This document shows positions 714-59,409 of a stretch of 64,000 nucleotides of DNA, piece by piece. The notes under the pieces are model-generated. The model was not told the origin of the DNA and did not search any database. It was given only the letters and a program-made list of their open reading frames with translations. The first letter of the stretch is position 1. Every line of letters begins with the position of its first letter. The stretch spans positions 588,805 to 652,804 of the forward strand of contig CAVYZR010000006.1 in assembly GCA_963773005.1 (NCBI GenBank), in the 5' to 3' direction. The stretch is from an uncultured Acidobacteriota bacterium (GTDB taxonomy: Bacteria; Acidobacteriota; Vicinamibacteria; Vicinamibacterales; 2-12-FULL-66-21). The translations under genes and the position numbers were made by a program.

Positions 714-817
714 TCCTATCGTCCGAAAAATGGTCCGGCATGAGAGACTGAACTCTGCTGAAATCTGGAAAGGCGATGACCTATCATCGGCAGCGTTCAC
801 AAAAGGGAGAATCGCGT

Positions 818-3247
818 ATGAACCATCGCCGCATCAGTACCGCACTGAGTTCGCTCGTCACTTCCGGCGCCATGCTGTTGCTGGCCGCTGCGGGCGCCTT
901 GGCCGGGCAGGATGTTCCCATCGTTCAGCCGGGCGCACCGGGTCAGAAGACCACGAAGCTGACGGCGCCGCAGGCGGTGAAGCTCGCCGACACGCGCTAC
1001 ACCGCGGACGATGTCACGTTCATGCGGGACATGATCCATCACCATGACCAGGCCGTGCAGATGGCCGAAGCCGTGAAGGACCGCACCAACGTGCCCGAAC
1101 TGGTTGCGGTGGCCGGCCGGATCAACGCGTCGCAGGCTGACGAAATCGCCTTCATGCAGCATTGGCTCCGTGAACGCGGCGAGAGCGTGCCGGATGCGTC
1201 GATGCATCGCGGGATGGATATGAAGGGCACCATGGTCGGCATGGCCTCGCCCGCCGACATGGCCAGGCTCGCGACCTTGAAGGGCGCCGACTTCGACCGT
1301 CTTTTCCTGACCTTGATGATCGCCCATCACGACGGCGCGCTGAAGATGGTCGACGCCCTCGTGAATAGGCCCGGCAGCGCCTACGATCCAGTGTTGTTCC
1401 AATTCACCAGCGACGTGAAGAGCGGACAGAAAGCCGAGATCGACCGGATGAGCGCGCTCCTGGGCACACTCGCGACCGACCCCCGCGTGGCGCTTGCGGC
1501 CGGGTTCAAGGACGCCGGACAGGCGGCGAGCAATCTTGCGCTGGTCGCGACGCTGGGCAAACCCACCGGCTTCTTCGATCCGGCCAACGTCGCAGATTTG
1601 CCGCTACCCAAGCCAAAGAAGAAGACTGATGGCGCCAAGCCCGCCGCCGCCAACGGCCAGTCCAATGACGGCACCGAATGGAGTGACCGTTCCCCACTGC
1701 TCTCTTTCGCGCAGACCGACATGGCGTTTAGGGGCGATGTGCTGGTAACCGGCAATTACCACGGCTTCAATATCTACCGCCTTACCGATGCGAAAGCGCC
1801 AACCCTGCTCAGCTCGGTGGTCTGTCCAGGCGGACAGGGCGATGTCTCCATCGTGGGAAATCTCCTGATCATGTCGGTTGAACAGACACGCGGCCGCGTG
1901 GACTGCGGGCGTCAGGGCGTGATCGAGGATGTGAGCAAGGACCGTTTTCGCGGTCTGCGTATCTTCGACATTTCGGACCTCACAAGCCCCCAGCAGGTCG
2001 GCCAGGTGCAGACCTGCCGCGGATCGCACACCCATTCGGTGGTGTTCGAGGACAAGGACCGTATCGTCGTCTACAACTCCGGCACGGCCGGGGTCCGCAA
2101 GGGAGAGGAGTTGGCTGGCTGCGTCGGCGGAGTGCCGGGCGACAACCGCACTGCCCTTTTCCGCATCGATGTGATCGAAATCCCCAAGGCCGATCCGTCG
2201 AAGTCGCGCATCGTCGACAGCCCCGCCGTCTTCGCGGACGAAGCCACCGGGCGCCTCGCCGGATTGTGGATGGGCGGCCATCACGGTGACGGCACGCAGG
2301 AAACGAGCGAAACCGACCAATGCCACGACATCACGGTGTTCCCCACTCGCAAGCTTGCGGCTGGCGCCTGCTCGGGCAACGGGATCATCTTCGACATCTC
2401 AGACCCGCTGAAGCCGAAGCGGCTCGACGTGGTGACCGACAAGGGTTTTGCCTATTGGCATTCGGCGACCTTCAACAACGACGGCACGAAGGTGATCTTC
2501 ACCGACGAATGGGGCGGTGGTTCGCGCCCGCGCTGCCGGTCCTACGATCCTCGCAACTGGGGCGCCGATGCGATCTACGACATCGTCTCTAACAAGCTGA
2601 TCTATCGTGGCACCTACAAACTGCCCGCTGCGCAGACCGAGAATGAAAATTGCGTCGCGCACAACGGCTCGATCGTGCCGGTGCCGGGTCGCGATATCTT
2701 CGTGCAGGCGTGGTATCAGGGCGGCCTGTCGGTGATTGATTTCACCGACAGCACGAAGCCAACCGAGATCGCCTTTTTCGACCGCGGTCCAATCAGCGAC
2801 AAGGCCGAGGTCCTCGGCGGCTACTGGTCCACTTACTGGTACAACGGCCGGATCTACGGCACCGAAATCGCCCGTGGTTTGGACGTGCTGGAACTCTCGC
2901 CTAGCAAATATCTAACTGCGAGCGAAATTGCGGCGGCGAAACTGGCGAATCAAGGTGGCACCTTCAACCCGCAGCAGCAGTATCCGGTCAGTTGGCCCGA
3001 TGCGCCAGTCGTGGCGCGCGCCTATATCGACCAACTGCAGCGTGACGGCGGCTTCACCGCGGCCAACGTCGCGACACTTTCGGCCATGCTGGACAAGGCC
3101 CAGGCGATACTCGACGCCGGACTGAAGGACGCGGGCGTGGCCGCCGAGCTGCGAACCCATGCCGGGCATCTGGCCGGTGCTGCGGCCGGCACACGCAAGG
3201 CGATGCTGGCGAAGGCAATGGAAGCGATCGCCGCCAAGCTCAGCTGA
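818..3247 (+). CDS. secreted DUF305 + LVIVD-repeat beta-propeller fusion protein
   Basis: ATG at 818 follows GGGAGA (the ORF track starts at 776). Signal-like N-terminus. Two DUF305-type His motifs (FMRDMIHHHDQAVQMAE, FLTLMIAHHDGALKMV). The following ~550 aa are highly similar by eye to the 660-aa protein at 16904-18886 (VCPGGQGD, QTCRGSHTH, QCHDITVF, ENCVAHNGS). Confidence 0.85.
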   Translation: MNHRRISTALSSLVTSGAMLLLAAAGALAGQDVPIVQPGAPGQKTTKLTAPQAVKLADTRYTADDVTFMRDMIHHHDQAVQMAEAVKDRTNVPELVAVAGRINASQADEIAFMQHWLRERGESVPDASMHRGMDMKGTMVGMASPADMARLATLKGADFDRLFLTLMIAHHDGALKMVDALVNRPGSAYDPVLFQFTSDVKSGQKAEIDRMSALLGTLATDPRVALAAGFKDAGQAASNLALVATLGKPTGFFDPANVADLPLPKPKKKTDGAKPAAANGQSNDGTEWSDRSPLLSFAQTDMAFRGDVLVTGNYHGFNIYRLTDAKAPTLLSSVVCPGGQGDVSIVGNLLIMSVEQTRGRVDCGRQGVIEDVSKDRFRGLRIFDISDLTSPQQVGQVQTCRGSHTHSVVFEDKDRIVVYNSGTAGVRKGEELAGCVGGVPGDNRTALFRIDVIEIPKADPSKSRIVDSPAVFADEATGRLAGLWMGGHHGDGTQETSETDQCHDITVFPTRKLAAGACSGNGIIFDISDPLKPKRLDVVTDKGFAYWHSATFNNDGTKVIFTDEWGGGSRPRCRSYDPRNWGADAIYDIVSNKLIYRGTYKLPAAQTENENCVAHNGSIVPVPGRDIFVQAWYQGGLSVIDFTDSTKPTEIAFFDRGPISDKAEVLGGYWSTYWYNGRIYGTEIARGLDVLELSPSKYLTASEIAAAKLANQGGTFNPQQQYPVSWPDAPVVARAYIDQLQRDGGFTAANVATLSAMLDKAQAILDAGLKDAGVAAELRTHAGHLAGAAAGTRKAMLAKAMEAIAAKLS

Positions 3248-3939: not shown

Positions 3940-4136
3940 GTTACTTACTGCGCTCGCCGCCCTTCGGGGCTTCACCCCGCGCTTGCTTGCCCGGACCGCG
4001 AGGACGACCTGCTAGAGACCGCGCAGATCGCTCGAGACAATTCTCTATTCTACCCCGAACCGCCCGTCAGGTAGCATGGTGAGCTCGACATCCAATCGCG
4101 GTGACACAGCGTAAAGAGGGTGTCGAGGAAGAACCT

Positions 4137-6479
4137 ATGGTTCGGATCGCTCGAATTCTCACATCTCTCCCGCTCCGCGTGGCTGGGTTCGTGATTCTGG
4201 CCGGCTCGGTCGCCTCGGCGCAGCCGCTGCTCACAGGCCGCGTGCGGGACGAGACCGGTGCGGCATTGCCGGGCGTACTCGTTGAACTCCGGTCGGGCAA
4301 TACCGCGGTCGGCCAGACGAATACGAACGATCGCGGCGAGTATCGGTTCGACGCCGCCCGTTCTGGACGGTTCGAACTCTCGTTCACGCTCGTGAACTTC
4401 GCGACGGTCCGGCGCCCGGTCACGATCGGCCCTGACGCACAGACGGTGGACGCGATTCTCTATCTCGTCCTCAGCGCAGACGTCACGGTGACTGGCAAGT
4501 CGACATTCACGAACCTCGCCGACGTACCCTCGCCGGAACAGGATCTGGTCGGGATCGCCCAATCCTCTAGTCAGGGCGCGGTCACCGCGCGGCAGCTCGA
4601 CACGCGCCCGATCATGCGGCCCGGCGAAGTCCTCGAAACCGTTCCGGGCGTCGTCATCAGCCAGCACAGCGGCGAGGGCAAGGCCAACCAATACTTTTTG
4701 CGCGGCTTCAACCTCGATCACGGCACTGACTTCGCAACGACGGTCGCGGGCATGCCGGTGAACATGCCGACGCACGGTCACGGCCACGGCTACTCCGATC
4801 TCAACTTCCTGATCCCGGAGCTCGCGAGCGGCGTTCAATTCTCAAAGGGCCCGTACTTCGCCGAGCACGGCGACTTTGCGACCGCTGGCACCGCCAACAT
4901 CAACTATACGAATACCCTCGCGCGTCCGATCGTTCGCGTCGGCGGCGGCAACGACGCCTTCGGACGCATGCTGCTCGCAGCAGCGCCGACTGTCGGCAGT
5001 GGCACACTCCTCGCCGCACTCGAGCTCGAGCACAGCGACGGCCCTTGGGAACAACCGGACGATCTGCGTAAGTTCAACGGGTTGATTCGCTATACGCGAG
5101 GCGATGGACGCAACGGCCTGTCGGCGACGCTCATGGGTTATCGCGGAACGTGGAACTCGACCGATCAGATCCCGACGCGCGCGGTGGACGACGGTCGCAT
5201 CGGCCGATTCGGCCTGGTCGATCCGACCGATGGTGGAAAGTCGTCGCGCTACAGCGCGTCGATCGAGTGGCAGCGCAGCAGCGGGAACGCCAGCACCACG
5301 CTCAGCGCCTACGGCCTCAAATACGACCTCGACCTGTTCTCGAACTTCACCTATTTCCTCGACGACCCCGAGAACGGCGATCAGTTCCAGCAGACCGATC
5401 ACCGGTTCGTGAGCGGGGCGCGCCTCACCCACCGACGCATCGGCCGGTGGCTGGATCGCCCGACGCAGAATACCGTCGGCGTCCAATTCAGGAACGACAA
5501 CATCGACGACATCGGCCTCTATCACACGCGCGAGCGTGAGCGGCTCGAGACGATCCGTCAGGATTCGGTGATCCAGACCAGTGCGGGTGCTTTCGCTCAG
5601 AACGAGACCGAGTGGACGCCGTGGCTGCGGACGCTCGCCGGCGTGCGCGTCGACGGGTATCGCTTCGATGTCACCGCCGGCATCACCGAGAACGGCGGCA
5701 CCGACTACGCAGAACTCGTCAGCCCGAAAGGCGGCGCGGTCTTTGGACCGTTCGCAAAGACCGAGGTCTACGTCAACGCCGGCCTCGGCTTTCACAGCAA
5801 CGACGCGCGCGGAGCGACCATCACCGTCGATCCGGTGACCGGCGAACCGGCCAGCCGCGTGACGCCGCTCGCGCGAGCGACTGGGGCGGAAATCGGCATC
5901 AGAACTGTACGCATCCCCAGGATGCAGATGACCGTCACGGCGTGGACTCTCGGGCTCGATTCCGAGCTCGTGTTCGTGGGCGACGCTGGAACAACAGCCC
6001 CCGGCCGCCCGAGCCGCCGCCAGGGGATCGAGTGGACGACGTACTACACGCCAAGGCCGTGGCTGATCTTCGACGCCGACCTCGCGCTCTCCAAGGGGCG
6101 GTTCACCGACGCCGATCCGGCAGGAGACCACATCCCCGGCGCCGTCGCCACGGTCGTGTCGGCCGGCGCAACCGTGGACAGCGTGCACAATGTGTTCGGC
6201 AGCGTCCGCTGGCGATACTTCGGCCCGCGCGCGCTCGTCGAGGACGACACCATCCGCTCGAAGGCGACGAGCCTCGTCAACCTCACCGCCGGATTCAAGT
6301 TCACGCCTTCACTGCGCGTCGCGCTCGAGGTGTTCAACCTCTTCAACGCAGCCGACAGCGACATCGACTATTTCTACCGGTCGCGTCTCCCAGGCGAGCC
6401 TGCCGGCGGTATCGACGATTTCCACATTCACCCTGCTGCGCCGCGGAGTGCACGGATCAACTTGATATTTGGATTCTGA
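4137..6479 (+). CDS. TonB-dependent receptor with N-terminal CarboxypepD_reg-like domain
   Basis: Signal peptide MVRIARILTSLPL...ASAQ (the ORF track starts at 4101). GRVRDETGAALPGVLVELRS module. Plug-like region VTARQLDTRPIMRPGEVLETVPGV. Long beta-barrel ending in the aromatic terminus INLIFGF. Confidence 0.85.
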   Translation: MVRIARILTSLPLRVAGFVILAGSVASAQPLLTGRVRDETGAALPGVLVELRSGNTAVGQTNTNDRGEYRFDAARSGRFELSFTLVNFATVRRPVTIGPDAQTVDAILYLVLSADVTVTGKSTFTNLADVPSPEQDLVGIAQSSSQGAVTARQLDTRPIMRPGEVLETVPGVVISQHSGEGKANQYFLRGFNLDHGTDFATTVAGMPVNMPTHGHGHGYSDLNFLIPELASGVQFSKGPYFAEHGDFATAGTANINYTNTLARPIVRVGGGNDAFGRMLLAAAPTVGSGTLLAALELEHSDGPWEQPDDLRKFNGLIRYTRGDGRNGLSATLMGYRGTWNSTDQIPTRAVDDGRIGRFGLVDPTDGGKSSRYSASIEWQRSSGNASTTLSAYGLKYDLDLFSNFTYFLDDPENGDQFQQTDHRFVSGARLTHRRIGRWLDRPTQNTVGVQFRNDNIDDIGLYHTRERERLETIRQDSVIQTSAGAFAQNETEWTPWLRTLAGVRVDGYRFDVTAGITENGGTDYAELVSPKGGAVFGPFAKTEVYVNAGLGFHSNDARGATITVDPVTGEPASRVTPLARATGAEIGIRTVRIPRMQMTVTAWTLGLDSELVFVGDAGTTAPGRPSRRQGIEWTTYYTPRPWLIFDADLALSKGRFTDADPAGDHIPGAVATVVSAGATVDSVHNVFGSVRWRYFGPRALVEDDTIRSKATSLVNLTAGFKFTPSLRVALEVFNLFNAADSDIDYFYRSRLPGEPAGGIDDFHIHPAAPRSARINLIFGF

Positions 6480-6480
6480 C

Positions 6481-6813
6481 GACGACTGACGACACACGAC
6501 AGTCGGGAGTCGGGGGTCGGAAGTCGGCAATCACAGTCGGCAGTCTGAGTCGGCAGTTCCAGTCTCATCCGGGGGACTTCGTCCCCCGGACCCCCTTACA
6601 CGCTCGCTCGCGGGGACCCCGACGCCCCGCTCCGCTCGCGTGGCTCACTCGCTACGCTCGTGCGCGCCACTAATGAGATGGCTTCTAGTCGCATCGCCTC
6701 CCCGCGCCCTGAAGGCGCTCGATACTGACTGAGACTGCCGACTCGGACTATCGACTCAGACTGTCGACGGTGACTCTCGACTCTCGACTCCCGATTCCCG
6801 ACTGCCGACTGTC
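6481..6813. repeat. composite intergenic element: GTCGGNN heptamer arms flanking an R1 core
   Basis: Left arm 6481-6565 is (GTCGGNN)n. Right arm 6721-6813 is the reverse-complement word (NNCCGAC)n. The R1 element (6569-6686) lies between the arms. Confidence 0.8.
6569..6686 (+). repeat. R1 element copy 1 (~118 nt GC-rich repeat)
   Basis: CCGGGGGACTTCGTCCCCCGG hairpin followed by ACCCCCTTACACGCTCGCTCGCGGGGACCCCGACGCCCCGCTCCGCTCGCGTGGCTC... Positions 6569-6646 are identical to 53026-53103. Confidence 0.85.
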
Positions 6814-6920
6814 TGTCCCTGTCTAGTCCCCAATCCATTCCCATCTCCCTCCCGTAGTACGAGTCGAACGCGCGGTGCGCGCCTCATCACAGGCCGGAAG
6901 AAATGAAAGGAAGGATTCTC

Positions 6921-8707
<1,787 letters not shown>

Positions 8708-8801
8708 TACTCGCGGCTCGCATCTCGCGATAAGGGGTCGGAGAGAGCAACGGCGAATTGCGAGCTGCGAGCCGCGATTTCACTTCAGAGAAGGACAGTC
8801 C

Positions 8802-9708
8802 ATGAGAGTTCCAGCTCGACTTCGCTCGGTCCTCTGCCTGACGCTCTTCATCGTCGCAGCCGGCTCGGGGCTTGCCGCCCACGACTTCTGGCTCGAACCA
8901 TCGACATTCGCGCCTGGTGTCGATGAGCTCGTCCGGATTCACCTTCGCATCGGCGAGCGATTTGCTGGCGAATCGCTCGCGCGCAACGGGTCCCTGATCG
9001 AGAAGTTCGTGATCGTCGGCCCATCAGGCGAGCGGCCGGTGCTGGGCCGCGACGGCATGGATCCCGCGGGCCTGGTGCGCCTCGATGCGCCCGGCATCTG
9101 GTTCGTCGGTTATCGCAGCCGGCCGAGCGCGGTCGAACTCGCGCCAGAGAAGTTCGAGCAATACCTGCGCGAAGAAGGGCTCGAGCACATCATCCAGGAA
9201 CGGGTCGCGCGCAAGGAGGCGCTGCTGCCGGTACGCGAGCGCTTCTCGCGCAGCGTGAAGTCGCTCCTGCGGTACGGCGGCGACCAGACGGTTCAAGGAT
9301 ACGACCGCGCGCTGGGCATGACGCTCGAGTTCGTACTCGACGCCGATCCTGCGCGCGCCTCCGGCGGTCGTGTACCGGTTCGACTCCTGAGAGACGGCCG
9401 TCCGCTCCCCGAAGCGCTGGTTGTCGCTTATCGCAGGGATTCGATCACGGCACTTCCTGGCCCAGCCAGTCAGGGCAAAGCAAGCGAGAGTCGCGAAGCA
9501 AACGAAGGCCGCGCGAGCAAACGAAAGCCGCGGAGCAAACGAAAGCAACGAAGCGCTGCGTGCCAGGACCGACAAGGACGGTCGGATCGTTCTTCCAGTG
9601 TCGAGCGGCGTGTGGCTGCTCAAAACGGTCTACATGGAGCGTGCCGCCGCCGGCAGCGGCGCCGATTGGGAGAGCGTCTGGAGCGCGCTGACGTTCAAAG
9701 TGGGTTGA
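8802..9708 (+). pseudogene. DUF4198 domain protein, reading frame broken in an internal tandem repeat
   Basis: ATG at 8802 follows AGAAGGA. Signal peptide plus AHDFWLEP (DUF4198 hallmark as I recall it). The conserved C-terminus ARTDKDGRIVLPVSSGVWLLKTVYME...WSALTFKV (stop 9706-9708) is in a different frame (ORF 9421..9708). The frame switch lies within 9498-9555. Confidence 0.7.
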
Positions 9709-9859
9709 TCAGCTTCCAGCTTCCAGCTGCCAGCTGCCAGCTGCCAGCTAGACCATTCTGAGCTCAGTCGACCGGCTAGGCTCTAAATGGTCTTAGCTGG
9801 TAGCTGGTAGCTGGAAGCCGGAAGCTGGTAGCTGGTAGCTGGCAGCGGGAAGCTGACAG
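9709..9859. repeat. CAGCTKC heptamer-armed hairpin filling a convergent spacer
   Basis: Left arm (CAGCTKC)x6 at 9709-9750, loop 9751-9793, right arm (KAGCTGG)x9 at 9794-9859. It occupies every base between the stop codons at 9706-9708 and 9860-9862. Confidence 0.85.
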
Positions 9860-13666: not shown

Positions 13667-13811
13667 GTTGGTTCAGGGTTCAAGGTTCAGGGTTCAAGGT
13701 TCAGGGTTCAAGGTTCGGGGTTCAAGGTTCGGGGTTTCGGGGTTCGGGAACGTGGAACCCGCGCCATGGACAATTTTGAACATTGAACTCTGGACCTTGA
13801 ACCATGAACCG
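13667..13811. repeat. GGTTCAR heptamer-armed imperfect hairpin
   Basis: About 11 tandem GGTTCAG/GGTTCAA/GGTTCGG units at 13667-13750. A partially complementary arm (GAACATTGAACTCTGGACCTTGAACCATGAACC) follows, ending at 13811. Confidence 0.75.
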
Positions 13812-13942: not shown

Positions 13943-14413
13943 ATGGAGAACCCGGCACAGGTCTTCGGAGGAACACCGCAGGCAGGAGGGCCGATCCCGC
14001 CCTCGTCGACGCTGCCCGATCACTGGCGGATGGCGCGCGCCGCGCATGTCGATCTGCTGCTGATGGGGATGCCGCGGGTCAATCTCCTTCTGATCGCGCC
14101 CGAGGGTGTCGTGCGGTTCGTGCTCGAATCGCTGTTGCTCGATCTGCACGAACCGATCGTGCGCTGGCGCCCCAGCGAACCGCTGACGCTGCCACGGGTT
14201 GACGAGGGCGGTACCCTCATGCTCCAGGACGTGGGGGCGATGACCACCGACGATCAGCTGCGGCTGCTCGACTGGCTCGAGCGAGCCGAGGGTCGAACAC
14301 AGGTCGTCAGCACGTCATCGGGCCCGGTACTGCCGCGGGTTCATTCCGGCGGTTTCATCGACACGCTCTACTACCGTCTCAATACTGTCTGCGTTGATGT
14401 GACGCCCTCCTGA
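13943..14413 (+). CDS. short sigma-54-interaction-domain-like protein lacking a Walker A motif
   Basis: GGTLMLQDVGAMTTDDQLRLLDWLE and FIDTLYYRLNTVCVDV align by eye with the GGTLFLDEIG...Q.KLLRVL and FREDLYYRLN motifs of enhancer-binding proteins. APEGVVRF replaces the GESGTGKE P-loop. Confidence 0.6.
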   Translation: MENPAQVFGGTPQAGGPIPPSSTLPDHWRMARAAHVDLLLMGMPRVNLLLIAPEGVVRFVLESLLLDLHEPIVRWRPSEPLTLPRVDEGGTLMLQDVGAMTTDDQLRLLDWLERAEGRTQVVSTSSGPVLPRVHSGGFIDTLYYRLNTVCVDVTPS

Positions 14414-16903: not shown

Positions 16904-18886
16904 CTACCGTAGACTGGCGGCCCGGCCCTTGAGCGTACTGGCGAGTGAGCGCAGACGTATCGCGTCGCGGCCGGTCGCCTTGGCGGCATCGCCTTCGAGG
17001 CCTTTCGCGAGCGCGTCGAGCTCGTCCAGCACTGCCGCGGCGCCATTGTCGCGCCCCGAGTGGAGCCGGTCAACGCGTTCGAGGGCAGCCGTAATGGCGC
17101 TCGCACGTTCCGGCTGGATGCCCTTGCTTCGCGTCAACTGGTCGATATACGCGCGTGCAACGACGGAACTCGCTGGCCAGACGACCTTCGGCTGCTGCTG
17201 CGGGTTGAACTCGGTCGCGCGGACGAGCATCGCCGCGTCGATCTCGTTCTGCGACAGGTGCTCGCTCGGCGTGAGCCTGAACACGTCAACGCCACGGGCC
17301 ATTTCTGTGCCGTAGATAAACCCGTTGTACCAGTAGGTCGACCAGTAGCCAGCGGTGATCAGGTTGATCGCATCAATCGGACCGCGGTCGAAGAACGCAA
17401 TTTCGACCGGCTTGGCTGAATCGGTGAAATCGAACACCGACACGCCGCCCTGATACCAAGCCTGCACCATGATGTCGCGGCCCGGGATCGGAATCAGCGA
17501 CCCGTTGTGCGCGACGCAGTTCTCCTGCTCGGTTTGCGGCGCCGGCATCTTGTAGTAGCCCCCGAACTCCAGCTTGCGGTCGACGATGTCGAAGACGGCG
17601 TCCGCGCCCCAGTTCGGAAGGTCGGTCGCGCGGCAGCGCGGGCGCGTGCCGCCTCCCCACTCATCGGTGAAGAGTACTTTCGAGCCGTCGTTATTGAACG
17701 TCGCCGAGTGCCAGTACGCGAAGTTCTTGTCCGTGACCTGGTCGAGCCGGACCGGCTTCACGGGATCCGAAATGTCGAGGAGGATGCCGTTTCCTGAGCA
17801 CGCGCCGGCGGCAAGGCCGACCTCAGGAAACACCGTGATGTCGTGGCACTGGTTCGTCACCGACGTTTTCTGCGTGCCCGGTCCGTGGTCGCCACCCGGC
17901 CAGAGGCCGGAGATAGCGCCGGTCGACGAATCGGCAAAGATCCGTGGGCGGCTGACGATACGGGCTTTCTCCGGGTTGGCGATCGGAATCTGGATGACGT
18001 CGATGCTGAAGAGCGCCGTGTTCGGGTCGTCTTTCGGCTCGGCGCCCGAGCAACCGGCGAGCTCGTCGGCGGACCGGACAGTGGCCGTGCCGGATCCATA
18101 GACGTAGAGATTGGCCTTGTCGTTCGGGTTCGCCACGAGGGTATGCGTGTGCGAGCCGCGGCACGTCTGCACCGCGGCGACCTGCTTCGGCTTCTTCACA
18201 TTTGTGATGTCGAAGACTCGGACGCCGCGAAAGCGAGCCGGGCTCACCGCGGCCTCGACGCCCTCGGTTCCGCAATCGATCCGGCCGCGGGTCTGCTCCA
18301 CGGACATGACGAGCAGGTTGCCGTGCACGGACAAATCGCCCTGTCCGCCCGGACAGACGATCGAGGCGAGCAACTTCGGCTTCTTCGGGTTCTCGAGATC
18401 GTAAATGTTGAACCCGTTGAAGTTGCCGATGAACAAGTGTTTGCCGCTGAACGCCAGGTCCGAATTCACGAAGTTCAAGCCGCCTCCGCCTGACGACGGC
18501 TTCGCCCCTGGCTTGGCATCTTTGTTTTCGCTCGGCTTCGCCTCTTTGCTTTCGCTCGGCTTGGCATCCTTGTTTTCACCCGGCTTGGGATCCGGCTTGT
18601 CTTCGGTCTCCGGTCCGGTGGGCTCCCCGGCCGGCTGTTTCGGATCGAAGAAGCCTGCGGGCTTCGGCAGGGTGCTGACCAGTTCGAGGTTGCGCGCGGC
18701 CTGACCGGCATCCTTCAAGCCCGGCTTGAGCCCGACGCGGGGATCGTTCGCGCTTGAGGCGGGTGCCGTCGCGGTAGGCGTCCGCTCCTGTCCACGCGCG
18801 CCGCCCCCAACCCCGCTCACAACCCCGCTCACAACAACGACGAGCGCTCCAACAACGCACAGCAACCGGGCCATCAGCGAACTCAT
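16904..18886 (-). CDS. secreted LVIVD-repeat beta-propeller protein
   Basis: Signal peptide and a low-complexity KP/E linker. The remaining ~550 aa are paralogous to the C-terminal part of 818-3247, with the same Cys/His motifs (VCPGGQGD, QTCRGSHTH, QCHDITVF, ENCVAHNGS). Confidence 0.85.
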   Translation of the reverse strand: MSSLMARLLCVVGALVVVVSGVVSGVGGGARGQERTPTATAPASSANDPRVGLKPGLKDAGQAARNLELVSTLPKPAGFFDPKQPAGEPTGPETEDKPDPKPGENKDAKPSESKEAKPSENKDAKPGAKPSSGGGGLNFVNSDLAFSGKHLFIGNFNGFNIYDLENPKKPKLLASIVCPGGQGDLSVHGNLLVMSVEQTRGRIDCGTEGVEAAVSPARFRGVRVFDITNVKKPKQVAAVQTCRGSHTHTLVANPNDKANLYVYGSGTATVRSADELAGCSGAEPKDDPNTALFSIDVIQIPIANPEKARIVSRPRIFADSSTGAISGLWPGGDHGPGTQKTSVTNQCHDITVFPEVGLAAGACSGNGILLDISDPVKPVRLDQVTDKNFAYWHSATFNNDGSKVLFTDEWGGGTRPRCRATDLPNWGADAVFDIVDRKLEFGGYYKMPAPQTEQENCVAHNGSLIPIPGRDIMVQAWYQGGVSVFDFTDSAKPVEIAFFDRGPIDAINLITAGYWSTYWYNGFIYGTEMARGVDVFRLTPSEHLSQNEIDAAMLVRATEFNPQQQPKVVWPASSVVARAYIDQLTRSKGIQPERASAITAALERVDRLHSGRDNGAAAVLDELDALAKGLEGDAAKATGRDAIRLRSLASTLKGRAASLR

Positions 18887-19551
18887 CTCTTCTCCTGCTC
18901 CTTCGACATGGCGATCATTCCACGCATGCGGTCAATCTCCATGCGCTGGTCGGCGTCGACGTCCGACGTAAAGGCATACATCTCGGATTCCTGTCCTGCT
19001 CCGGCCGTCGCGTACAACTCTTTCACCATCGTCAGGGCGCCCTCGTGGTGCTTGATCATCAGCTCCAGGAACAGCCGATCGAACGCGTCACCCTTGGCGG
19101 CGGCGAGGCGGGCCATTTCCTCGGTGCTGAGCATGCCAGGCATCAATGTAGCGCCGGTCGCACCGGCCGCGTGGTGCGCATGAGGTCCTGGCACCTGCTG
19201 GCCTCGCGCCTCGAGCCAGTGCTGCATCATGCGGATTTCGTCGGCCTGGGACAGGTCGATGCGTTTCGCAAGCAGCCGCATGTCGTCCCGTTGAGTCCGC
19301 TCCGGCACCAGGGCGGCCATCTCGAGCGCCTGCGCGTGGTGTCCGATCATACCTTGCATAAAGCGGACGTCAGCGGCGCTGTACTGGACGCGCGAGAGAT
19401 CCGTGGCTTTCTCGGCCGAAATCACCCGCGTTGCCTGGCCTGGAGCGCCTGGCTGGACGATCACGGGGCGGTCGCCGCCGCGGGGCGTGCGACACGCGCC
19501 GCCGCCTATGGTCACCAGAACGATCAGCAGGCCGCATTCAAAGCGAGACAT
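18883..19551 (-). CDS. DUF305 domain protein (secreted/lipoprotein-like)
   Basis: FMQGMIGHHAQALEMAA and FLELMIKHHEGALTMVK repeat motifs. Its stop overlaps the start of the downstream LVIVD gene (ATGA, 18883-18886). Confidence 0.85.
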   Translation of the reverse strand: MSRFECGLLIVLVTIGGGACRTPRGGDRPVIVQPGAPGQATRVISAEKATDLSRVQYSAADVRFMQGMIGHHAQALEMAALVPERTQRDDMRLLAKRIDLSQADEIRMMQHWLEARGQQVPGPHAHHAAGATGATLMPGMLSTEEMARLAAAKGDAFDRLFLELMIKHHEGALTMVKELYATAGAGQESEMYAFTSDVDADQRMEIDRMRGMIAMSKEQEKR

Positions 19552-27418: not shown

Positions 27419-29624
27419 GTGCTGGCGCTCTACACAACGAGGAGGGGAACCCCCTCAGCGGTGGTTCTCGATGGCGCCCTGGAGCGGACGCTCGGGACGG
27501 GCCTCGCAGGTCGTCTCGACCTCCACGTCGAGTACATCGACCTGGCACGGTTTCCCGATCCGCAGTACCAGTTGGCGCTGCGGGATTTCCTCCGTGCCAA
27601 GTACGCCCGGTACAAGTTCGATCTGATCATCGCGACGTCGGGCGAGGATCTCGATTTCGCCACGCGCTACCGCGACGACCTCTTTCCTGGCGTGCCCCTC
27701 GTCTTCAGTTCCAGCCCGGGCCCCTCCCCGGTCCCCAACGCGACGGGCCTCATTTCGGAGCTGAACCTCCGCGACACGGTGCAGATTGCGGCCACGATCC
27801 AGCCGAGCTGCGGCGCGTCGTGGTCGTCAGCGGCGCCTCTGCTCTTGACAAGTCCTACGAGGCGGTGGCTCGCGATCAGTTCAAGGCTTTCGAAGGCCGC
27901 CTGGTGTTCGCCTACCTGTCCGGACTTCCCATGTCGGAGCTGCTCCGACAGGTTGCCCAGCTTCCCGCAGATTCGATGATCTACTACCTCACGGTTTTCG
28001 AGGACGGCAACGGCGACAAGTTCATCGGGGCCGACGGGCTGGAGAGAATTTCGGCCGTGGCAAATGTACCGACCTACACCTGGCACATCTCAGGACTCGA
28101 CCGCGGAATCGTCGGTGGCAGCCTCATAAGCATGGAGGTCCTGGCCTGACGGCTGGCAGAACTGGGGTTGCGGGTGCTCGGAGGCGAAAGAGCAGACGCC
28201 ATCGCCATCACGGAAATCAATCCAAACGTCGTCGAGTTCGACTGGCGCCAGCTCCAGCGCTGGCAGATCGACGAGCGCCGCTTGCCGTCGGGCAGCGTCG
28301 TTCGATTCCGTCAACCTACGACGTGGGAACGGTACAAGGCCTACATCATTACGGCCGTTGCGGTCCTGGGGCTCCAGACGATGTTCATCGCCGGGCTCCT
28401 CTTTCAGCGAGCCAGACGGCGACGGGTCGAAGCGGCGCTGCGTCAGAACCAGCAGCGCTATGCGCTGGCGACGGTGGCGGGCGCAGTCGGCGTCTGGGAT
28501 TGGAACCTGGATACCAACGGGATGTACGTCGACCCGCAACTCAAGCAGCTCCTGGGCTACCGCGACGATGAAATTCGCAACCTTGACGACTGGAGGCAAC
28601 GGGTGCATCCAGACGATCGCGAGATCGTCAGGACTCGAGCGCAAGCATGCATCGACGACGGCCTTGATGCCTACGAACTGGAACACCGGATGTTGCACAA
28701 GAACGGCAGCCTCAGATGGTTTGTCGCGCGCGGATCGATCATGAAGCGGGCCGATGGCACGCCGTACCGCATCGTCGGCACCGAAACGGACATCACCGAA
28801 CGCAAACGCGCCGAACAAGAGATTCACGAGAACGAAGCCGCCCTTCGGGCCAGCAACGAAGAGATTCAGAATCTTGCGGGGCGGCTCAGGGCCGTGGGCC
28901 CGCGTCAGGGACGATTCGAGCTGGCCGACGGCGGAACGATCTTCCTGGACGAGATCGGCGATCTCTCGCCCGAGGTGCAGGTGAAGTTCCTGCGCGTCCT
29001 GCAAGAAGGTGAATTCGAGCGCGTCGGTTCCTCCCGCACCACGAGAGTGGACGTTCGCGTGATTGCGGCCATCGTGATCTCGACGCACTCGTGGCGGAAG
29101 GACACTTCCGCGCCGATCTCTACTACAGGCTGAGCGTCTATCCGATTCGCCTGCCATCGTTGCCCGAGCGCACCGCGGACATCCCGAGACTCGTGTGGTT
29201 CTTCATCAACCGCCACCAGCGAGAGCTCGGACGACGAATCGCACAGGTGCCGCGGGCCGTGATTGAAGATTTACAGCGCTACACATGGCCTGGCAACGTT
29301 CGCGAGCTCGAGAACGTCATCGAGCGGGCGCTCATCGCGTCGAGCGGCGAGATCCTCGAGCTCGACGATCCGTCTTCCCTCAGGCCGCAGCTGCACACCG
29401 CGGCGCCCGCGTCCGAGAAGCTCGACGACGTGCAGGCCGCGCACATCGGCGCCGTGCTGGCGCGGTGCGGCTGGCGAATCAATGGCAGCGGGAATGCCGC
29501 CGAGCGATTGGGCGTCCATCCCAACACGCTTCGGTTCCGGATGAAGAAGCTCGGGGTGGCCTGCCCACGGCAGCGCGCGAGCGCTCAACTCGACGCCGTA
29601 GGGAACCGACCGGTAGACTCGTAG
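27419..29624 (+). pseudogene. sigma-54-dependent transcriptional activator with periplasmic sensor, TM and PAS domains; multiply disrupted
   Basis: Domain order: sensor, TM ([21 protein letters not shown]), PAS, AAA+, Fis HTH. Frameshift near 27803. In-frame TGA at 28147-28149. The AAA+ N-terminal part including Walker A is missing (…[30 protein letters not shown]). Frameshift near 29070 between VDVRVIAA and [20 protein letters not shown]. Confidence 0.75.
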
Positions 29625-37352: not shown

Positions 37353-39608
37353 GTGCATAATCACGGTCCGATCCTCGCTCTCCTGCTGACGTTCATCTTT
37401 GCGGCTAGACCGTGCCTTGCGGGGCCGGTCAGCGGTCAGGTCGTCGATCCTGACGGCCGCGGCGTTCCCGGCGCGGTCGTGCTGGTAACGGACGGCACGT
37501 CGGTGATCGCCCGCACGATGACGGTCTCGTCGGGACAATTCACGCTCAACGCCCCGGACAGTGGCGACTACGAAATTCGCATCGCGCTCGACGGGTTCCG
37601 AGCCAAGCCGATCCGAATCGCTGGCGCCGGCGCGGCCAGGGATCTTGGAACGATCGCGCTCGAGATCAGCGCCGTATCTGAATCGGTCGTCGTCTCGGCG
37701 GCGCAAGTTGAAATTCCGCAATCGTCGGCCGCCTCGAGCGTGACGATCATCACCCGCGACGACCTCGAGAAGCATCAAGTCGAGAGCGTCGCCGACGCCC
37801 TGCGGGCCGTGCCGGGACTGTCGGTGATCACCAACGGCGGCCGCGGCGCGGTGACGAGCGTGTTCCCGCGCGGCGGCGAATCGGACTATTCGCTCGTGAT
37901 CGTCGACGGCGTGCAGGCGAATGCGTTCGGCGGGGGCTACGATTTCGCGCATCTCCCAGTCGCGAACATCGAGCGGATCGAAGTCGTTCGTGGACCGCAG
38001 AGCGCGCTCTTTGGATCGAACGCGATCGGCTCGGTGATCCGCGTCGTCACCCGGCGGGGCGGCCAGCCTGACGCGTCCGCCTCGATCGAAGGCGGCGGCT
38101 ACGATACGTTCCGCGCGACCGCCGCCACCTCGGGCGCCGTCGGACCGTGGCACTGGGGCGCGGCGACCGAACGGTTGACCACGGCGAATTTCAACGGCTC
38201 GCGCACCGCGACCGGTGCCATCGTCGAGAATGACGACTACGAGCGGAGCTTCGCGGATCTGGCCGGCGGGTGGCGCAACAGCCAGGGCGCGGGGATTCAG
38301 GGAAGCCTGCGCTACGCCACCGACGAGCGCGGTGCTCCGGGGCCGTTCGGCGCGGACCCTGGCGGGACCTACGGCGGGATTGACCTCGTCGCGCGCGGCG
38401 TCAACGATCGCTGGCTGATGTCGATTGCTGGCGCCGCGACGGCGGGTCGCGCCCGAATCAGCGGCGAAGCAACGCACTCGCGGCTCGGCAGCGAGTTTGC
38501 GAGCCAGTTCGGCGATTCCGAGTCGTATACCCGGCGGACGACCGCGCGCTTTCTGGTAGATACGACCTTCGCGCGGGGCCTCGAAGCGTCGGCAGGCGCC
38601 GAACTGCTAGGTGAAAGCGCCGGCGGCACCTTTATCACTGCCACAGGCAATCAGCTCGTGCCCGTTGAGCGCGGTATCGCCGGGGTCTTCGGCGAGGTGC
38701 GGTGGAACCGAGCCGATCGACTTTTTCTGGCGGCAGGCCTCCGCGTCGACCGCATTACGCGTCAAGCTCTCGCCGGAGACGCCGACGCGTTCGCTCCACG
38801 GCCGCCGTTCGACAGCGACACGGTCGTCTCGGCAAATCCCAAGGTCGCGGCGGCGTGGGTCCTTGGCGCGACCGACGGCAACTTCACCAAGCTTCGGGGA
38901 ACAGCGGGCACCGGCATCCGCCCCCCCGACGCTTTTGAGCTCGCTTTCACCGACAACCCGTCGCTCGAGCCGGAGCGCAGCCGCAGCTTCGACGCAGGCG
39001 TCGAACAGGCGCTCTTCGGCGGGCGTGGCCTCGTCGAGGGCACCTTCTTCTTCAATAACTACGACGACCTGATTGTCGCGACGGGATCGTTCAGCGGCTC
39101 GAGCCAGTTTCGGACCGACAACATCTCGAATGCGCGCGCACAGGGCGTCGAAATTGCCGGCACGGTGCGGATGCCGCTGAATGCGCTCGGCGGCGGAAGC
39201 CTTCAGGTCCGCGTCGGCTACACGCGTCTCTCGACCGAAATCCTCGCCGTCGATCAGAGCGGGCTGGCCCCGGCCCCGTATGCAGTCGGTGACCGGTTGC
39301 TGCGGCGGCCCGATCACATGTTCTCAGCCGACGTGCTGCTCTCTGCCGGACCGCTCTCGGCGTTCCTCGACGGCGGGGCCCGCAGCACAGTCAGCGACGT
39401 CGACCCGAGCTTCGGCACGTTCGGCGGCGTCTACGAGGGACCCGGATACAGTGTTTGGAACGCCGGCGCATCGTGGGCGTTCTGGAACCGGCTGCAGATC
39501 TTCGGGCGCGTCACCAACCTCTTCAATCGCGACTACGAGGAAGCGCTGGGTTACCCTGCGCTCAGACGTGCCGGGATGGTGGGAGTGAGGGTTGCTGCGA
39601 GCCGCTGA
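37353..39608 (+). CDS. TonB-dependent receptor (BtuB-like by context) with CarboxypepD_reg domain
   Basis: GTG at 37353 follows AAGGAG. Signal peptide. GQVVDPDGRGVPGAVVLV module, plug (VTIITRDDLEKHQVESVADALRAVPGL) and barrel. Confidence 0.85.
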   Translation: MHNHGPILALLLTFIFAARPCLAGPVSGQVVDPDGRGVPGAVVLVTDGTSVIARTMTVSSGQFTLNAPDSGDYEIRIALDGFRAKPIRIAGAGAARDLGTIALEISAVSESVVVSAAQVEIPQSSAASSVTIITRDDLEKHQVESVADALRAVPGLSVITNGGRGAVTSVFPRGGESDYSLVIVDGVQANAFGGGYDFAHLPVANIERIEVVRGPQSALFGSNAIGSVIRVVTRRGGQPDASASIEGGGYDTFRATAATSGAVGPWHWGAATERLTTANFNGSRTATGAIVENDDYERSFADLAGGWRNSQGAGIQGSLRYATDERGAPGPFGADPGGTYGGIDLVARGVNDRWLMSIAGAATAGRARISGEATHSRLGSEFASQFGDSESYTRRTTARFLVDTTFARGLEASAGAELLGESAGGTFITATGNQLVPVERGIAGVFGEVRWNRADRLFLAAGLRVDRITRQALAGDADAFAPRPPFDSDTVVSANPKVAAAWVLGATDGNFTKLRGTAGTGIRPPDAFELAFTDNPSLEPERSRSFDAGVEQALFGGRGLVEGTFFFNNYDDLIVATGSFSGSSQFRTDNISNARAQGVEIAGTVRMPLNALGGGSLQVRVGYTRLSTEILAVDQSGLAPAPYAVGDRLLRRPDHMFSADVLLSAGPLSAFLDGGARSTVSDVDPSFGTFGGVYEGPGYSVWNAGASWAFWNRLQIFGRVTNLFNRDYEEALGYPALRRAGMVGVRVAASR

Positions 39609-40476
39609 CATCACATTCTCGTATCGACAGCAGGCGCGGCCGGTGCTGCGCGGCGCCTCGCTGGACGTGCCAGCCGATGGCGTTGTTGGAATCCTCGGGC
39701 CGAACGGCTCGGGAAAAACCACGCTCCTGCGAGTGCTGGCGGGCACGCTTCGGCCCTCGAGCGGACGCGTGACGCTCGACGGCGTCGATCTCGCTCGATT
39801 GTCGCGTTCGATGATGGCGCGGCGAATGGCCGTCGTGCCGCAGGAAACGCACCTCGCGTTCGACTTCACGGTGCTCGAGGTGGTCCTGATGGGGCGCTAC
39901 CCCCACCTCGGGACGTTCGAAGTCGAGGGCCCGCGCGACCTCGCTCTCGCGCGCCGGGCCCTCGAGGCCACCGGCACCGGGGCGTTCGAGAATCGACTCT
40001 TTGCCACGCTGAGCGGCGGCGAGAAGCAGCGCGTCATCATCGCCGCCGCGCTGGCGCAGATTTCGAGCGAAAACCGGGGTCAGGCCGTGAATCGTGAATT
40101 CGCTGAATCCGGCCGAAAAGCCATGATTCATGATTCACGGCCTGACCCCGGTATTTTGCTGCTCGACGAGCCGACGGCGGCGCTCGATCTCGCCTACCAA
40201 CTCGAAGTCGCCTCGCTCCTTCGCGATCTCCAGCGACGCGCGCCCATCGCCATCGTCATCTCGACGCACGACCTCAACTTCGCCGCGGGGCTCTGCAAAA
40301 CGCTCGTGTTGCTCAAAGATGGGCGGATCCTGGCTTCAGGCGCGACCGGCGACGTCCTGACCGTCGGGAATATCCGGGCGCTCTACGGCATCGAGGCGGA
40401 TGTCCAGTCGCATGCGGGCGCCGGCCATCTCGTGGTCGTACCGGTCGGCCGGAGCGCGCGTGGGACGGCCTCGTGA
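39592..40476 (+). CDS. ABC transporter ATP-binding protein (FecE/BtuD family) with internal 28-aa insertion
   Basis: Walker A GPNGSGKTT, signature LSGGEKQR, Walker B ILLLDEP. ISSENRGQAVNREFAESGRKAMIHDSRP is inserted between the signature and Walker B motifs. Confidence 0.85.
   Translation: MLRAADITFSYRQQARPVLRGASLDVPADGVVGILGPNGSGKTTLLRVLAGTLRPSSGRVTLDGVDLARLSRSMMARRMAVVPQETHLAFDFTVLEVVLMGRYPHLGTFEVEGPRDLALARRALEATGTGAFENRLFATLSGGEKQRVIIAAALAQISSENRGQAVNREFAESGRKAMIHDSRPDPGILLLDEPTAALDLAYQLEVASLLRDLQRRAPIAIVISTHDLNFAAGLCKTLVLLKDGRILASGATGDVLTVGNIRALYGIEADVQSHAGAGHLVVVPVGRSARGTAS
40073..40152. repeat. palindromic element inside the ABC ATPase coding sequence
   Basis: ACCGGGGTCAGGCCGTGAATC (40073-40093) is the exact reverse complement of GATTCACGGCCTGACCCCGGT (40132-40152). 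The arms contain GTGAATC/GATTCAC heptamer words. Confidence 0.85.
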
Positions 40477-41474
40477 CGATCCGCCGGCGAATCGCCGTGA
40501 CGACAACCGGCTTCGGCCTGGTGGCGGTGGCGGCGGTCACGCTGGCGCCACTCGTCGGGTCGACCGCGATCAATCTGCGGCGCGCGTTCGACTGGTCGGT
40601 GCCATTTGCCGACAACGTCGACGCGCAGATCTTTTTCGTCGCCCGGTTACCGCGCACGCTCGCGGGCGCACTGGTCGGCGCTGCCCTGGCGGCCGCAGGC
40701 GTCGTCTTTCAAGGGCTTCTCCGCAATCCGCTCGCCACGCCGTTCACACTCGGCGTGTCCTCTGGCGCGGCGCTTGGCGCGATGCTGGCCATTACGTTCA
40801 ACTGGACGCTGGGCGTGGGCGGGATCTCCGCGGTATCGGTCGCCGGCTTCGTTGGGGCCGCATGCGCCGTCACGATTGTCTATGCGCTCGCACGCGCCCA
40901 CCGGCGCGGCCTCTCGACCGACGTCCTGCTGCTCGCCGGCGTGACGCTCAACGCGTTTTTCTCGGCACTGATCCTCTGCGTTCAGTACTTCGCCGATTTT
41001 GCCGACGCCTACCGTACCCTGCGCTGGTTGATGGGAGACCTCGACGTCAGCAGCTATCAGCCAATCGTGACCTCACTTCCGCTCTTGCTCGCTGCCTTCG
41101 CGGTGTTTGCGTGGCTGGCGCGCCCGCTGAACCTGCTCAGCCTCGGCGCTGACAGCGCCGAAACGCGAGGTATCGACGTCACGAGCGCCCAGAGACGCGC
41201 CTTCTTCAGTGCGTCGCTCGCCACCGGCGCGGCCGTTTCGGTCGGCGGACCGGTCGGCTTCATCGGCATCATCGTTCCGCACCTCGTGCGGTTGATCGTC
41301 GGCTCGGATCACCGCCTGGTGCTCCCCGCCTCGGCGCTCTTTGGCGCGGCGTTTCTCGTCGGCTGCGACGTCCTCGCCCGGACGCTGATCGCGCCGGTCG
41401 AGATCCCAGTTGGCGTGATCACGGCGCTCATCGGGGGGCCGTTCTTTCTCTGGTTGCTGGTGAGGAAAGCGTAG
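40473..41474 (+). CDS. FecCD-family ABC permease (BtuC-like)
   Basis: Multi-TM protein with RLPRTLAGALVGAALAAAG and GPVGFIGIIVPHLVRL, typical of the family. The start overlaps the upstream stop. Confidence 0.9.
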   Translation: MTIRRRIAVTTTGFGLVAVAAVTLAPLVGSTAINLRRAFDWSVPFADNVDAQIFFVARLPRTLAGALVGAALAAAGVVFQGLLRNPLATPFTLGVSSGAALGAMLAITFNWTLGVGGISAVSVAGFVGAACAVTIVYALARAHRRGLSTDVLLLAGVTLNAFFSALILCVQYFADFADAYRTLRWLMGDLDVSSYQPIVTSLPLLLAAFAVFAWLARPLNLLSLGADSAETRGIDVTSAQRRAFFSASLATGAAVSVGGPVGFIGIIVPHLVRLIVGSDHRLVLPASALFGAAFLVGCDVLARTLIAPVEIPVGVITALIGGPFFLWLLVRKA

Positions 41475-53605: not shown

Positions 53606-53609
53606 GTGA

Positions 53610-57090: not shown

Positions 57091-57108
57091 GTGTATCTAT
57101 GTCCAAAT

Positions 57109-57180
57109 CGGGGACTTCGTCCCCGGACCCCTTTCGGCGTCGCTCGCGTGGGCCCTTCGCCCCGCTCCGCTCCGCCGGGG
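57109..57180 (+). repeat. R1 element copy 5 (degenerate)
   Basis: CGGGGACTTCGTCCCCGGACCCCTTTCGGCGTCGCTCGCGTGGGCCCTTCGCCCCGCTCCGCTCCGCC, in the sufC-sufD spacer. Confidence 0.6.
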
Positions 57181-57202
57181 CGCGCCTCCGGCGCGCCGCA
57201 TG

Positions 57203-57961
<759 letters not shown>

Positions 57962-57963
57962 AT

Positions 57964-59409
<1,446 letters not shown>

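Follow-up and report, generated by a model that had tools for sequence, protein, structure and literature searches.

We describe here two versions of a gene partnership carried by a 64,000-nucleotide stretch (hereafter called the window) of contig CAVYZR010000006.1, from an uncultured Acidobacteriota bacterium. A small protein with a DUF305 domain and a large propeller protein are encoded there by two overlapping genes, and the same two modules occur a second time as a single fused gene. We find that DUF305 and propeller genes are linked in many other bacteria, and we consider it very probable that the two modules act together. The best reading of our data, to which we give a probability of about one half, is that the propeller is an exported metalloenzyme and DUF305 its dedicated metal-handling or chaperone domain.

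Two paralogous DUF305-propeller copies in the window

The split copy consists of a DUF305 gene (18883-19551, minus strand, 222 residues) and a propeller gene (16904-18886, minus strand, 660 residues). The stop codon TGA of the former overlaps the start codon ATG of the latter in an ATGA at 18883-18886 (minus strand), which points to translational coupling. The fused gene lies at 818-3247 on the plus strand and encodes 809 residues. An earlier note on this DNA had described both the coupled pair and the fused gene, and the three open reading frames (ORFs), with the translation of the split propeller, were confirmed. The longest frame at the fused locus is 776-3247 (+); the start at 818 is favoured because close homologues measure 800-812 residues. 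With a G+C content of about 64%, the window looks like chromosomal DNA, and its source is probably a Vicinamibacterales-type acidobacterium, this being the label of the closest named protein matches.

The propeller parts of the fused and split copies are 60% identical over 579 residues (E = 0) and their DUF305 parts 49% identical over 183 residues (E = 6e-53). Judged from these alignments, the paralogy of the two copies is far beyond chance. In the fused protein, a putative signal peptide (residues 1-30) precedes the DUF305 helices (63-218, with MxxHH motifs at 72 and 167), a short junction (about 219-232), the propeller (236-693, with a disordered loop at 253-295) and a four-helix C-terminal domain (730-808). 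The split propeller reads as a putative signal peptide at the N-terminus, a conserved N-terminal strand that closes blade 7 (residues about 46-82), a disordered Lys/Pro-rich loop (about 85-135), seven blades (about 137-545) and a C-terminal helical bundle (about 570-660). The N-terminus of the split DUF305 protein is hydrophobic with a cysteine at residue 20, and could possibly be that of a lipoprotein or a signal peptide. These hydrophobic or signal segments, along with eight conserved propeller cysteines, suggest that both proteins are exported by the Sec route. The extracytoplasmic location assumed in the earlier note is thus consistent with our own reading.

DUF305 and propeller genes are linked across bacteria

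The 120 clusters closest to the fused protein all carry the DUF305 profile PF03713 but one (P0158, 630 residues). Most of these relatives measure about 780-835 residues, while a few are shorter and probably truncated; they include named proteins of Altererythrobacter, Woeseia, Alteromonadaceae and Kordiimonadales. A scan for the propeller family with one genome per species returned at least 597 loci, and among the best 80 of these all 80 were fused. These 80 belong to Sphingomonadales, Caulobacterales, Parvularculales, Woeseiaceae, Lysobacterales, Cellvibrionales, SAR86, Pseudohongiella, Acidobacteriota and Gemmatimonadales. The fused form thus occurs in at least 80 species, which belong to the Alpha- and Gammaproteobacteria, the Acidobacteriota and the Gemmatimonadales, and the identity between Acidobacteriota and Proteobacteria is about 65%.

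Among the 120 relatives closest to the split propeller none is fused; they measure 578-686 residues, mostly about 620-670. An ATGA-type coupled pair with the same 4-bp overlap was found in two other acidobacterial, Vicinamibacterales-like contigs (L081 and L082, the two examined). Among propellers with 40-50% identity, the gene order is reversed at locus L085, where the propeller gene precedes that of DUF305 with a 4-bp overlap, and at L089 a DUF305 gene lies 89 nt downstream of a propeller gene carrying a Big_3 module; the flanks of L086 and L088 are too short to judge adjacency.

Such distant propellers (about 40-47% identity) were used as a profile for a metagenome scan, and 80 of the resulting loci were searched with custom hidden Markov models. 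DUF305 is adjacent in 48-49 of the 80. Where at least 1.6 kb was available on both flanks, it is adjacent in 20 of 26 loci, 15 times divergently upstream and five times downstream on the same strand. A divergent pair also appears in the RefSeq annotation of a linear plasmid of Streptomyces sp. NBC_00184. In Nonomuraea gerenzanensis (LT559118, locus L173, about 5049-8714) two tandem propeller paralogues come after a DUF305 gene in the divergent arrangement; that record, labelled 'plasmid I' although its 11.85 Mb presumably make it the chromosome, contains three propeller matches in all. Tractable carriers of the module include Streptomyces, Nonomuraea, Woeseia, Microbulbifer, Qipengyuania and Blastomonas.

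Altogether, the genetic linkage of DUF305 and propeller occurs in four different arrangements. It is not confined to this genome, since fusion is found in several phyla and adjacency in three other arrangements, and the survey excludes chance adjacency. The argument from fused and split genes put forward in the earlier note is strengthened, the association holding in distant relatives even where gene order and strand differ. When the ORFs around 80 fused and 86 distant loci were clustered, no conserved neighbour emerged except DUF305. Counts of 8-mers and inspection of the lowest-GC windows in 34 divergent DUF305/propeller promoter regions returned GC-rich background words and no metal-specific operator.

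The DUF305 module resembles the copper protein CopM

Profile PF03713 matches the split DUF305 protein with E = 3.7e-43 (147.6 bits) and the fused protein with E = 2e-42 (145.3 bits), against a cut-off of 27 bits, and both matches span profile positions 1-150/151. A sequence search of the PDB with the DUF305 part matched the DUF305 structures 3bt5 and 2qf9, CopM (5fej) and also 7vw0-2. The best NCBIfam match of the DUF305 parts is the CopM metallochaperone model NF049983, although its 75.3 and 67.1 bits stay below the 90-bit equivalog cut-off.

Both DUF305 parts carry the two paired His motifs reported in the earlier note. In the split protein these are MIGHH and MIKHH (residues 68-72 and 165-169, encoded at 19336-19350 and 19045-19059, minus strand), and in the fused protein MIHHH and MIAHH; a His/Met-rich linker joins the two DUF305 halves in both. 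Of 67 fused proteins all retain both MxxHH motifs, and of 52 separate DUF305 partners 49 do. For the DUF305 domain, MxxHH has been described as the copper motif, with MHxxH in the linker between the halves as a second site (PMC11836926). Both in the periplasm and extracellularly, CopM of Synechocystis binds Cu(I) with a dissociation constant of about 3e-16 M (PMC4335983). In the AlphaFold model of the fused protein the DUF305 part forms long helices (63-84, 93-119, 156-182 and 191-218). These features suggest that it is a CopM-type four-helix bundle and a putative metal binder.

Such a resemblance invites the view that the whole module serves copper defence, with DUF305 as a CopM-like copper sponge, periplasmic or extracellular, and a propeller that assists it by oxidising copper, sequestering it or passing it on. 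The only DUF305 proteins studied by experiment are indeed copper binders needed for copper tolerance (PMC4335983, PMC11836926). In Myxococcus xanthus a DUF305 lipoprotein adjoins a propeller lipoprotein in the copper-induced curA operon (PMC3707914), and the NCBIfam match just mentioned fits the same view, albeit below threshold. However, the Myxococcus propeller is annotated PQQ_2 and can be likened to the window family by description only. No P-type ATPase, multicopper oxidase, CopCD, CusF or CopRS is conserved beside either arrangement (about 170 loci) or present in the window. Moreover, CopM works alone, whereas here a 400-residue partner is more conserved than DUF305 itself (60% versus 49% between the paralogues), and the propeller pocket described below resembles a hydrolytic binuclear centre. 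We thus regard copper defence as an unlikely function.

Both large proteins are predicted seven-bladed propellers

The earlier note had assigned the propellers to the LVIVD family. Whereas its DUF305 assignment stands (E about 1e-43), the LVIVD label holds at the level of the family and stays below threshold for the split propeller itself. The full-length split propeller has no Pfam match at E <= 0.01. After trimming of its N-terminus it scores 15.5 bits with LVIVD (PF08309), whose gathering cut-off is 20.2 bits; for the fused protein the score is 18.6 bits at full length, and 20.9 bits when its propeller is taken alone. LVIVD matches 17 of 33 diverse relatives from the propeller family. The choice-of-anchor B model TIGR04312 gave partial matches (profile positions 198-362) with 41.2 and 56.5 bits against a cut-off of 100.

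AlphaFold models were obtained for the fused protein (mean predicted local distance difference test score, pLDDT, 78; predicted template modelling score, pTM, 0.71) and for the split propeller (pLDDT 78.9, pTM 0.83). In both, an N-terminal strand closes a ring of seven blades with four strands each, and a helical bundle forms the C-terminus, so that a seven-bladed propeller fold is predicted for both proteins. A disordered Lys/Pro-rich loop lies between the closing strand and blade 1 in both models. In the split propeller this loop is encoded by a tandem repeat (18510-18592, minus strand; 24-nt unit, 3.5 copies) that yields SENKDAKP-type repeats, with pLDDT below 50. In the fused protein only about 15 residues separate the end of the last DUF305 helix from the closing strand, and the long disordered stretch is therefore a loop within the propeller and not a linker between the two domains. 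The loop, with its Lys/Pro/Glu-rich repeats, varies in length and sequence from one paralogue to the other and from homologue to homologue.

The C-terminal domain of about 80-100 residues (window positions 2915-3244, plus strand, and 16907-17209, minus strand) is modelled as a helical bundle with pLDDT above 90. Its one match is a faint one to FIMAH (E = 0.047), and distant relatives have Big_3, SLH or other modules in its place. The family as a whole is large, with 4,403 clusters at 50% identity (E <= 1e-3), 829 of them at E <= 1e-30. Its distant members carry SLH, CWB2, Big_3, fn3, RTX or CBM5/12 modules, all of which are extracytoplasmic.

A conserved, predicted pocket on the top face of the propeller

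Every Cys/His motif listed in the earlier note was found in both propeller copies. In an alignment of 101 sequences the eight cysteines are invariant, as are H404, H406, H503, H548 and H615 (numbering of the fused protein) and likewise D342, D504, D563, E564 and N616. Relatives down to about 36% identity retain all eight cysteines, and D342, H503, D504, H548, D563, E564, H615 and one of H404/H406 are invariant or nearly so; for N616, invariance is unconfirmed at that distance.

According to the strand register of the model, these residues gather at the starts of inner strands: D342 in blade 2, H404 and H406 in blade 3, H503 and D504 in blade 4, H548 in blade 5, H615 and N616 in blade 6, with D563/E564 after strand B of blade 5. 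Invariant polar residues at the inner-strand starts of five consecutive blades are typical of an active site and not of a binding surface. The candidate ligands of the fused protein are encoded on the plus strand, namely D342 (1841-1843), E355, H404/H406 (2027-2035), H503/D504 (2324-2329), H548 (2459-2461), D563/E564 (2504-2509) and H615 (2660-2662). Their counterparts in the split propeller are D184, E197, H246/H248, H348, D349, H393, D408/E409 and H460. It is likely that this top pocket of invariant Asp, His and Glu residues binds metal. In the models the eight cysteines (178, 205, 242, 279, 347, 363, 418 and 457 in the split propeller) occupy top-face loops beside the candidate ligands.

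The propeller is remotely related to the phosphotriesterase Sb-PTE

Sb-PTE from Sphingobium sp. TCM1 is a propeller with a two-manganese centre. A PDB sequence search with a single propeller protein found nothing, and a Foldseek search with both models returned the Sb-PTE structure 5hrm as top match (E = 1.3e-11 for the fused and 1.8e-13 for the split protein). This match leads the next ones, which are generic WD40 propellers, by 2 orders of magnitude for the fused protein and 4-5 for the split one, with a target-normalised template modelling score of 0.53-0.55 over about 515 columns. Searched with the profile of the propeller family, the PDB yielded 5hrm and 5ioj (hmmsearch, E = 1.8e-5). By these model-based comparisons, Sb-PTE is the only specific structural relative of the propeller.

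Profiles were also compared directly. The alignment of the Sb-PTE family was seeded with a full-length homologue from Sphingobium plasmids, whose relatives are annotated as LVIVD-repeat proteins, and hhalign paired the two family profiles with 81% probability (E = 1.2e-5, 271 columns). It places blades 5-7 in register and aligns H548 (in WHS) with His-389 of Sb-PTE (also in WHS), and C573/C612 with Cys-411/Cys-443. With one Sb-PTE sequence in place of the family profile the probability is 57%, and hmmalign to Sb-PTE aligned blade 6 alone. The sequence evidence thus amounts to a weak profile match, which indicates remote homology to Sb-PTE at the superfamily level only.

The metal ligands of Sb-PTE are reportedly the bridging Glu-201, His-258, His-317, His-389, Glu-407 and His-475, and its disulfides are said to be 146-242, 411-443 and 542-559. 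All six of these ligand positions are invariant in the Sb-PTE family alignment. When the numbering offset was checked on the plasmid-borne homologue, the six cysteines matched directly and the His positions fitted, while for Glu-201 and Glu-407 family invariance is the sole check. By blade register, the ligand-type residues of our models would follow the Sb-PTE pattern Glu, His, His, His, Glu, His. A Cys573-Cys612 disulfide is supported by homology with the Sb-PTE pair, and we infer the pairs 336-363, 400-435 and 502-518 for the other cysteines.

The same cysteines could be taken as the sign of a two-subunit redox enzyme, in which DUF305 would be a ferritin-like catalytic or redox subunit with a metal or electron-transfer site of its own, and the Cys/His-rich propeller would act on a small inorganic substrate such as sulfur oxyanions. 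DUF305 and DUF4142 are usually placed among ferritin-like bundles, and the DUF305 part also matches Pfam DUF4142. The eight invariant cysteines lie on the pocket face. In Starkeya novella, DUF305 and propeller genes 12 bp apart are driven by the extracytoplasmic function (ECF) sigma factor RpoE1 and induced by tetrathionate (PMC6527743), but the propeller there is annotated 'YVTN' and is likened to the window family by description only. A Sinorhizobium RpoE1 operon was also considered as a DUF305 case and rejected: its first gene, SMc01418, the only one examined, has a 'lipoprotein 15' repeat in place of DUF305. Around the 80 fused and 86 distant loci, genes for cytochromes, cupredoxins or sulfur oxidation are not conserved. 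Since C573/C612 align with a structural disulfide of Sb-PTE, it is more probable that the cysteines serve as staples than that they are redox residues or ligands. A redox enzyme of this kind appears to us somewhat less probable still than a role in copper defence.

The relationship to Sb-PTE also bears on the idea that the propeller is a non-catalytic scaffold or adhesin of the cell surface, modulated or anchored by DUF305. LVIVD repeats were defined in cell-surface proteins (PMC2447325), and the modules found on distant relatives are typical of surface display; such anchoring modules are, however, equally common on secreted enzymes. The identity kept between Acidobacteriota and Proteobacteria and the active-site pattern of the inner strands both speak against a binding protein, and the closest structure is that of an enzyme. 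We consider this explanation very improbable.

The Sb-PTE family itself was met in other settings, namely catabolic ones or IS6100-flanked plasmids (loci L171, 2064-7721, and L083, 1567-4342). The LVIVD gene of L171 overlaps by 4 bp both an upstream tannase-family gene and the following AMP-binding ligase gene, which precedes a GST gene; a TonB receptor gene lies upstream. A near-identical homologue of Sb-PTE, sharing about 94-97% identity with its nearest database relative, adjoins IS6100 on plasmids of Sphingobium and Sphingopyxis.

A proposed metalloenzyme with a dedicated metal partner

We propose that DUF305 and the propeller, in the split pair as in the fused paralogue, would form one extracytoplasmic functional unit. 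Its large part would be a disulfide-stapled propeller of the LVIVD superfamily, with invariant Asp, His and Glu residues in a central top pocket. Given a residue layout like that of the two-manganese centre of Sb-PTE, this propeller is most probably a metal-dependent enzyme and, by analogy, a hydrolase. DUF305 would bind metal and serve the propeller as a dedicated metal-handling partner, and fusion or translational coupling would hold the two at a ratio of 1:1. Since Sec export and disulfide formation outside the cytoplasm are expected, the propeller metal would be acquired after export. DUF305 could then load the catalytic site once the protein has been exported and its disulfides have formed in the periplasm. 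Alternatively, it could buffer the metal or keep the wrong metal out of the propeller. A specific chaperone or loading role strikes us as about as likely as not. We infer the transfer of metal from DUF305 to the pocket, the identity of the pocket metal and the chemistry catalysed. The metal- or redox-related role suggested in the earlier note gains support on its metal side, with a CopM fold that keeps both MxxHH motifs and a nearest propeller structure that is a binuclear-metal enzyme.

Several observations weigh against this proposal. Firstly, with its many carboxylates the pocket would fit Mn, Zn or Fe more readily than Cu(I), yet copper is what the characterised DUF305 proteins bind; the DUF305 part could thus supply copper, supply a different metal or shield the site from copper. 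Secondly, the partnership is not universal. No adjacent DUF305 was found in 6 of the 26 well-flanked metagenome loci, nor within 4-5 kb of the propellers of loci L084 and L087 (40-50% identity), and the Sb-PTE family loci examined contain no fused or adjacent DUF305. The partner is thus no general need of the fold, and the partnership would be a trait of the Cys-rich subfamily. Thirdly, the ligand mapping of blades 2-4 and 6 depends on blade register. In the profile alignment a repeat artefact displaces the N-terminal half by one blade, so that blades 2-4 are out of register, and a blade-by-blade Smith-Waterman matrix does not separate register 0, which scores 215, from register 4, which scores 213. 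Finally, neither copy in the window adjoins metal-homeostasis genes conserved elsewhere. The relationship to Sb-PTE, the sub-threshold LVIVD score of the split propeller and the relatives without adjacent DUF305 are all points on which the earlier note was silent.

One could go further and assume that DUF305 is primarily an enzyme-specific extracytoplasmic metallochaperone or insertase for a large, disulfide-stapled class of LVIVD propeller enzymes (about 4,400 clusters at 50% identity, at least 597 species) whose multinuclear metal centre would resemble that of Sb-PTE. These would catalyse a widespread extracytoplasmic reaction, of which Sb-PTE would be a recent xenobiotic offshoot. We find this generalisation doubtful.

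The literature search found no paper naming both DUF305 and LVIVD, and where DUF305 is named with 'propeller' a functional pairing is not discussed. Fused proteins are already present in public databases under the annotation 'DUF305 domain-containing protein'. The functional link between DUF305 and the propeller is thus well supported and previously undiscussed, and it follows the known theme of an extracytoplasmic metalloenzyme with a dedicated metal partner. It is a useful annotation lead, without being a surprise in principle. DUF305 is a large family whose studied members are copper binders without a known client, and LVIVD propellers are usually dismissed as surface repeats. Fusion and adjacency give each module a concrete partner and provide a testable model, that of a metal-handling domain serving an extracytoplasmic propeller metalloenzyme, with D342, H404/H406, H503, H548, D563/E564, H615 and the four Cys pairs as targets at the level of residues. 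The analysis also places the flame-retardant-degrading Sb-PTE in a far larger natural superfamily, which may help to explain the origin of its activity.

Other features of the window

Directly downstream of the fused gene, on the plus strand, lie genes for a TonB-dependent receptor with an N-terminal CarboxypepD_reg domain (4101-6479), a DUF4331 protein (6903-8537, E = 7e-135) and a DUF4198 protein (8661-9761). This stretch (4101-9761) resembles a cluster for uptake across the outer membrane, perhaps of a metal. In 80 loci of other species none of these genes was found near the fused gene, and they were therefore left out of the DUF305-propeller system. A second CarboxypepD_reg-type TonB-dependent receptor gene, followed by genes for an ABC ATPase and a FecCD-family permease (37353-41474, plus strand), looks like a siderophore- or cobalamin-type uptake operon.

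A near-perfect (GGTTCAG)n or 14-nt tandem repeat of about 5-11 copies occupies 13670-13748, between genes, after that of a LuxR-type response regulator. A sigma-54 activator-like gene with a PAS region (28168-29624, plus strand) is split into the overlapping ORFs 28168-29133 and 29091-29624, by a frameshift or a sequencing error, and its AAA+ part seems by eye to be without a Walker A segment. We considered whether insertion of a 15-kb island had brought the split pair into a sigma-54 activator gene, with fragments at 13943 and 29091, and rejected this idea, as the 29091 fragment continues the adjacent ORF 28168-29133; the ORF at 13943-14413 is a separate one of 156 residues, with only a partial Sigma54_activ_2 match. 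Further on, an ORF of 229 residues (52327-53016, minus strand) matches positions 1-207 of the 371 of a class-V aminotransferase (cysteine desulfurase) profile and may be a truncated gene or a pseudogene. It adjoins an Rrf2-family regulator gene (53144-53731) and lies near a SUF-type cluster with a cysteine desulfurase gene and two SufB/D-family genes (54515-59409).

Comparison with known systems

In M. xanthus (MXAN_3416/3417) and S. novella (Snov_0990/0991), as here, a DUF305 gene lies directly beside the gene of an exported propeller. The former pair is regulated by copper via CorSR (PMC3707914) and the latter by tetrathionate via ECF RpoE1 (PMC6527743), both being signals of the envelope-stress type. 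The propellers differ in their annotation, PQQ_2 and YVTN respectively, and annotation is the level at which they were compared.

With CopM of Synechocystis PCC 6803 and the other solved DUF305 proteins, the DUF305 parts of the window share the Pfam domain, the two MxxHH motifs, the Met/His-rich linker and, probably, export. They differ in staying below the CopM equivalog cut-off and in lying outside any copMRS-type operon. They are also paired with or fused to a propeller, a pairing not described for CopM.

Sb-PTE (5hrm, 5ioj), also called haloalkylphosphorus hydrolase, is an exported seven-bladed LVIVD-type propeller with disulfides, as is predicted for the propellers of the window. The identity is about 14%, however, and the window family has eight invariant cysteines where Sb-PTE has six, an insertion of about 95 residues in blade 3, a helical domain added at the C-terminus and the further conserved acidic or polar residues D504, D563 and N616.

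A further parallel can be drawn with N2O reductase, NosZ, a propeller metalloenzyme that is served by a dedicated extracytoplasmic metal chaperone, NosL. NosZ was absent from the top 50 fold matches of both models; there is no homology between the systems and their ligand sets differ. By analogy, a small metal-binding protein from a linked gene would in each case help to build the metal centre of a propeller enzyme outside the cytoplasm, with the difference that here the helper can be fused to its enzyme.

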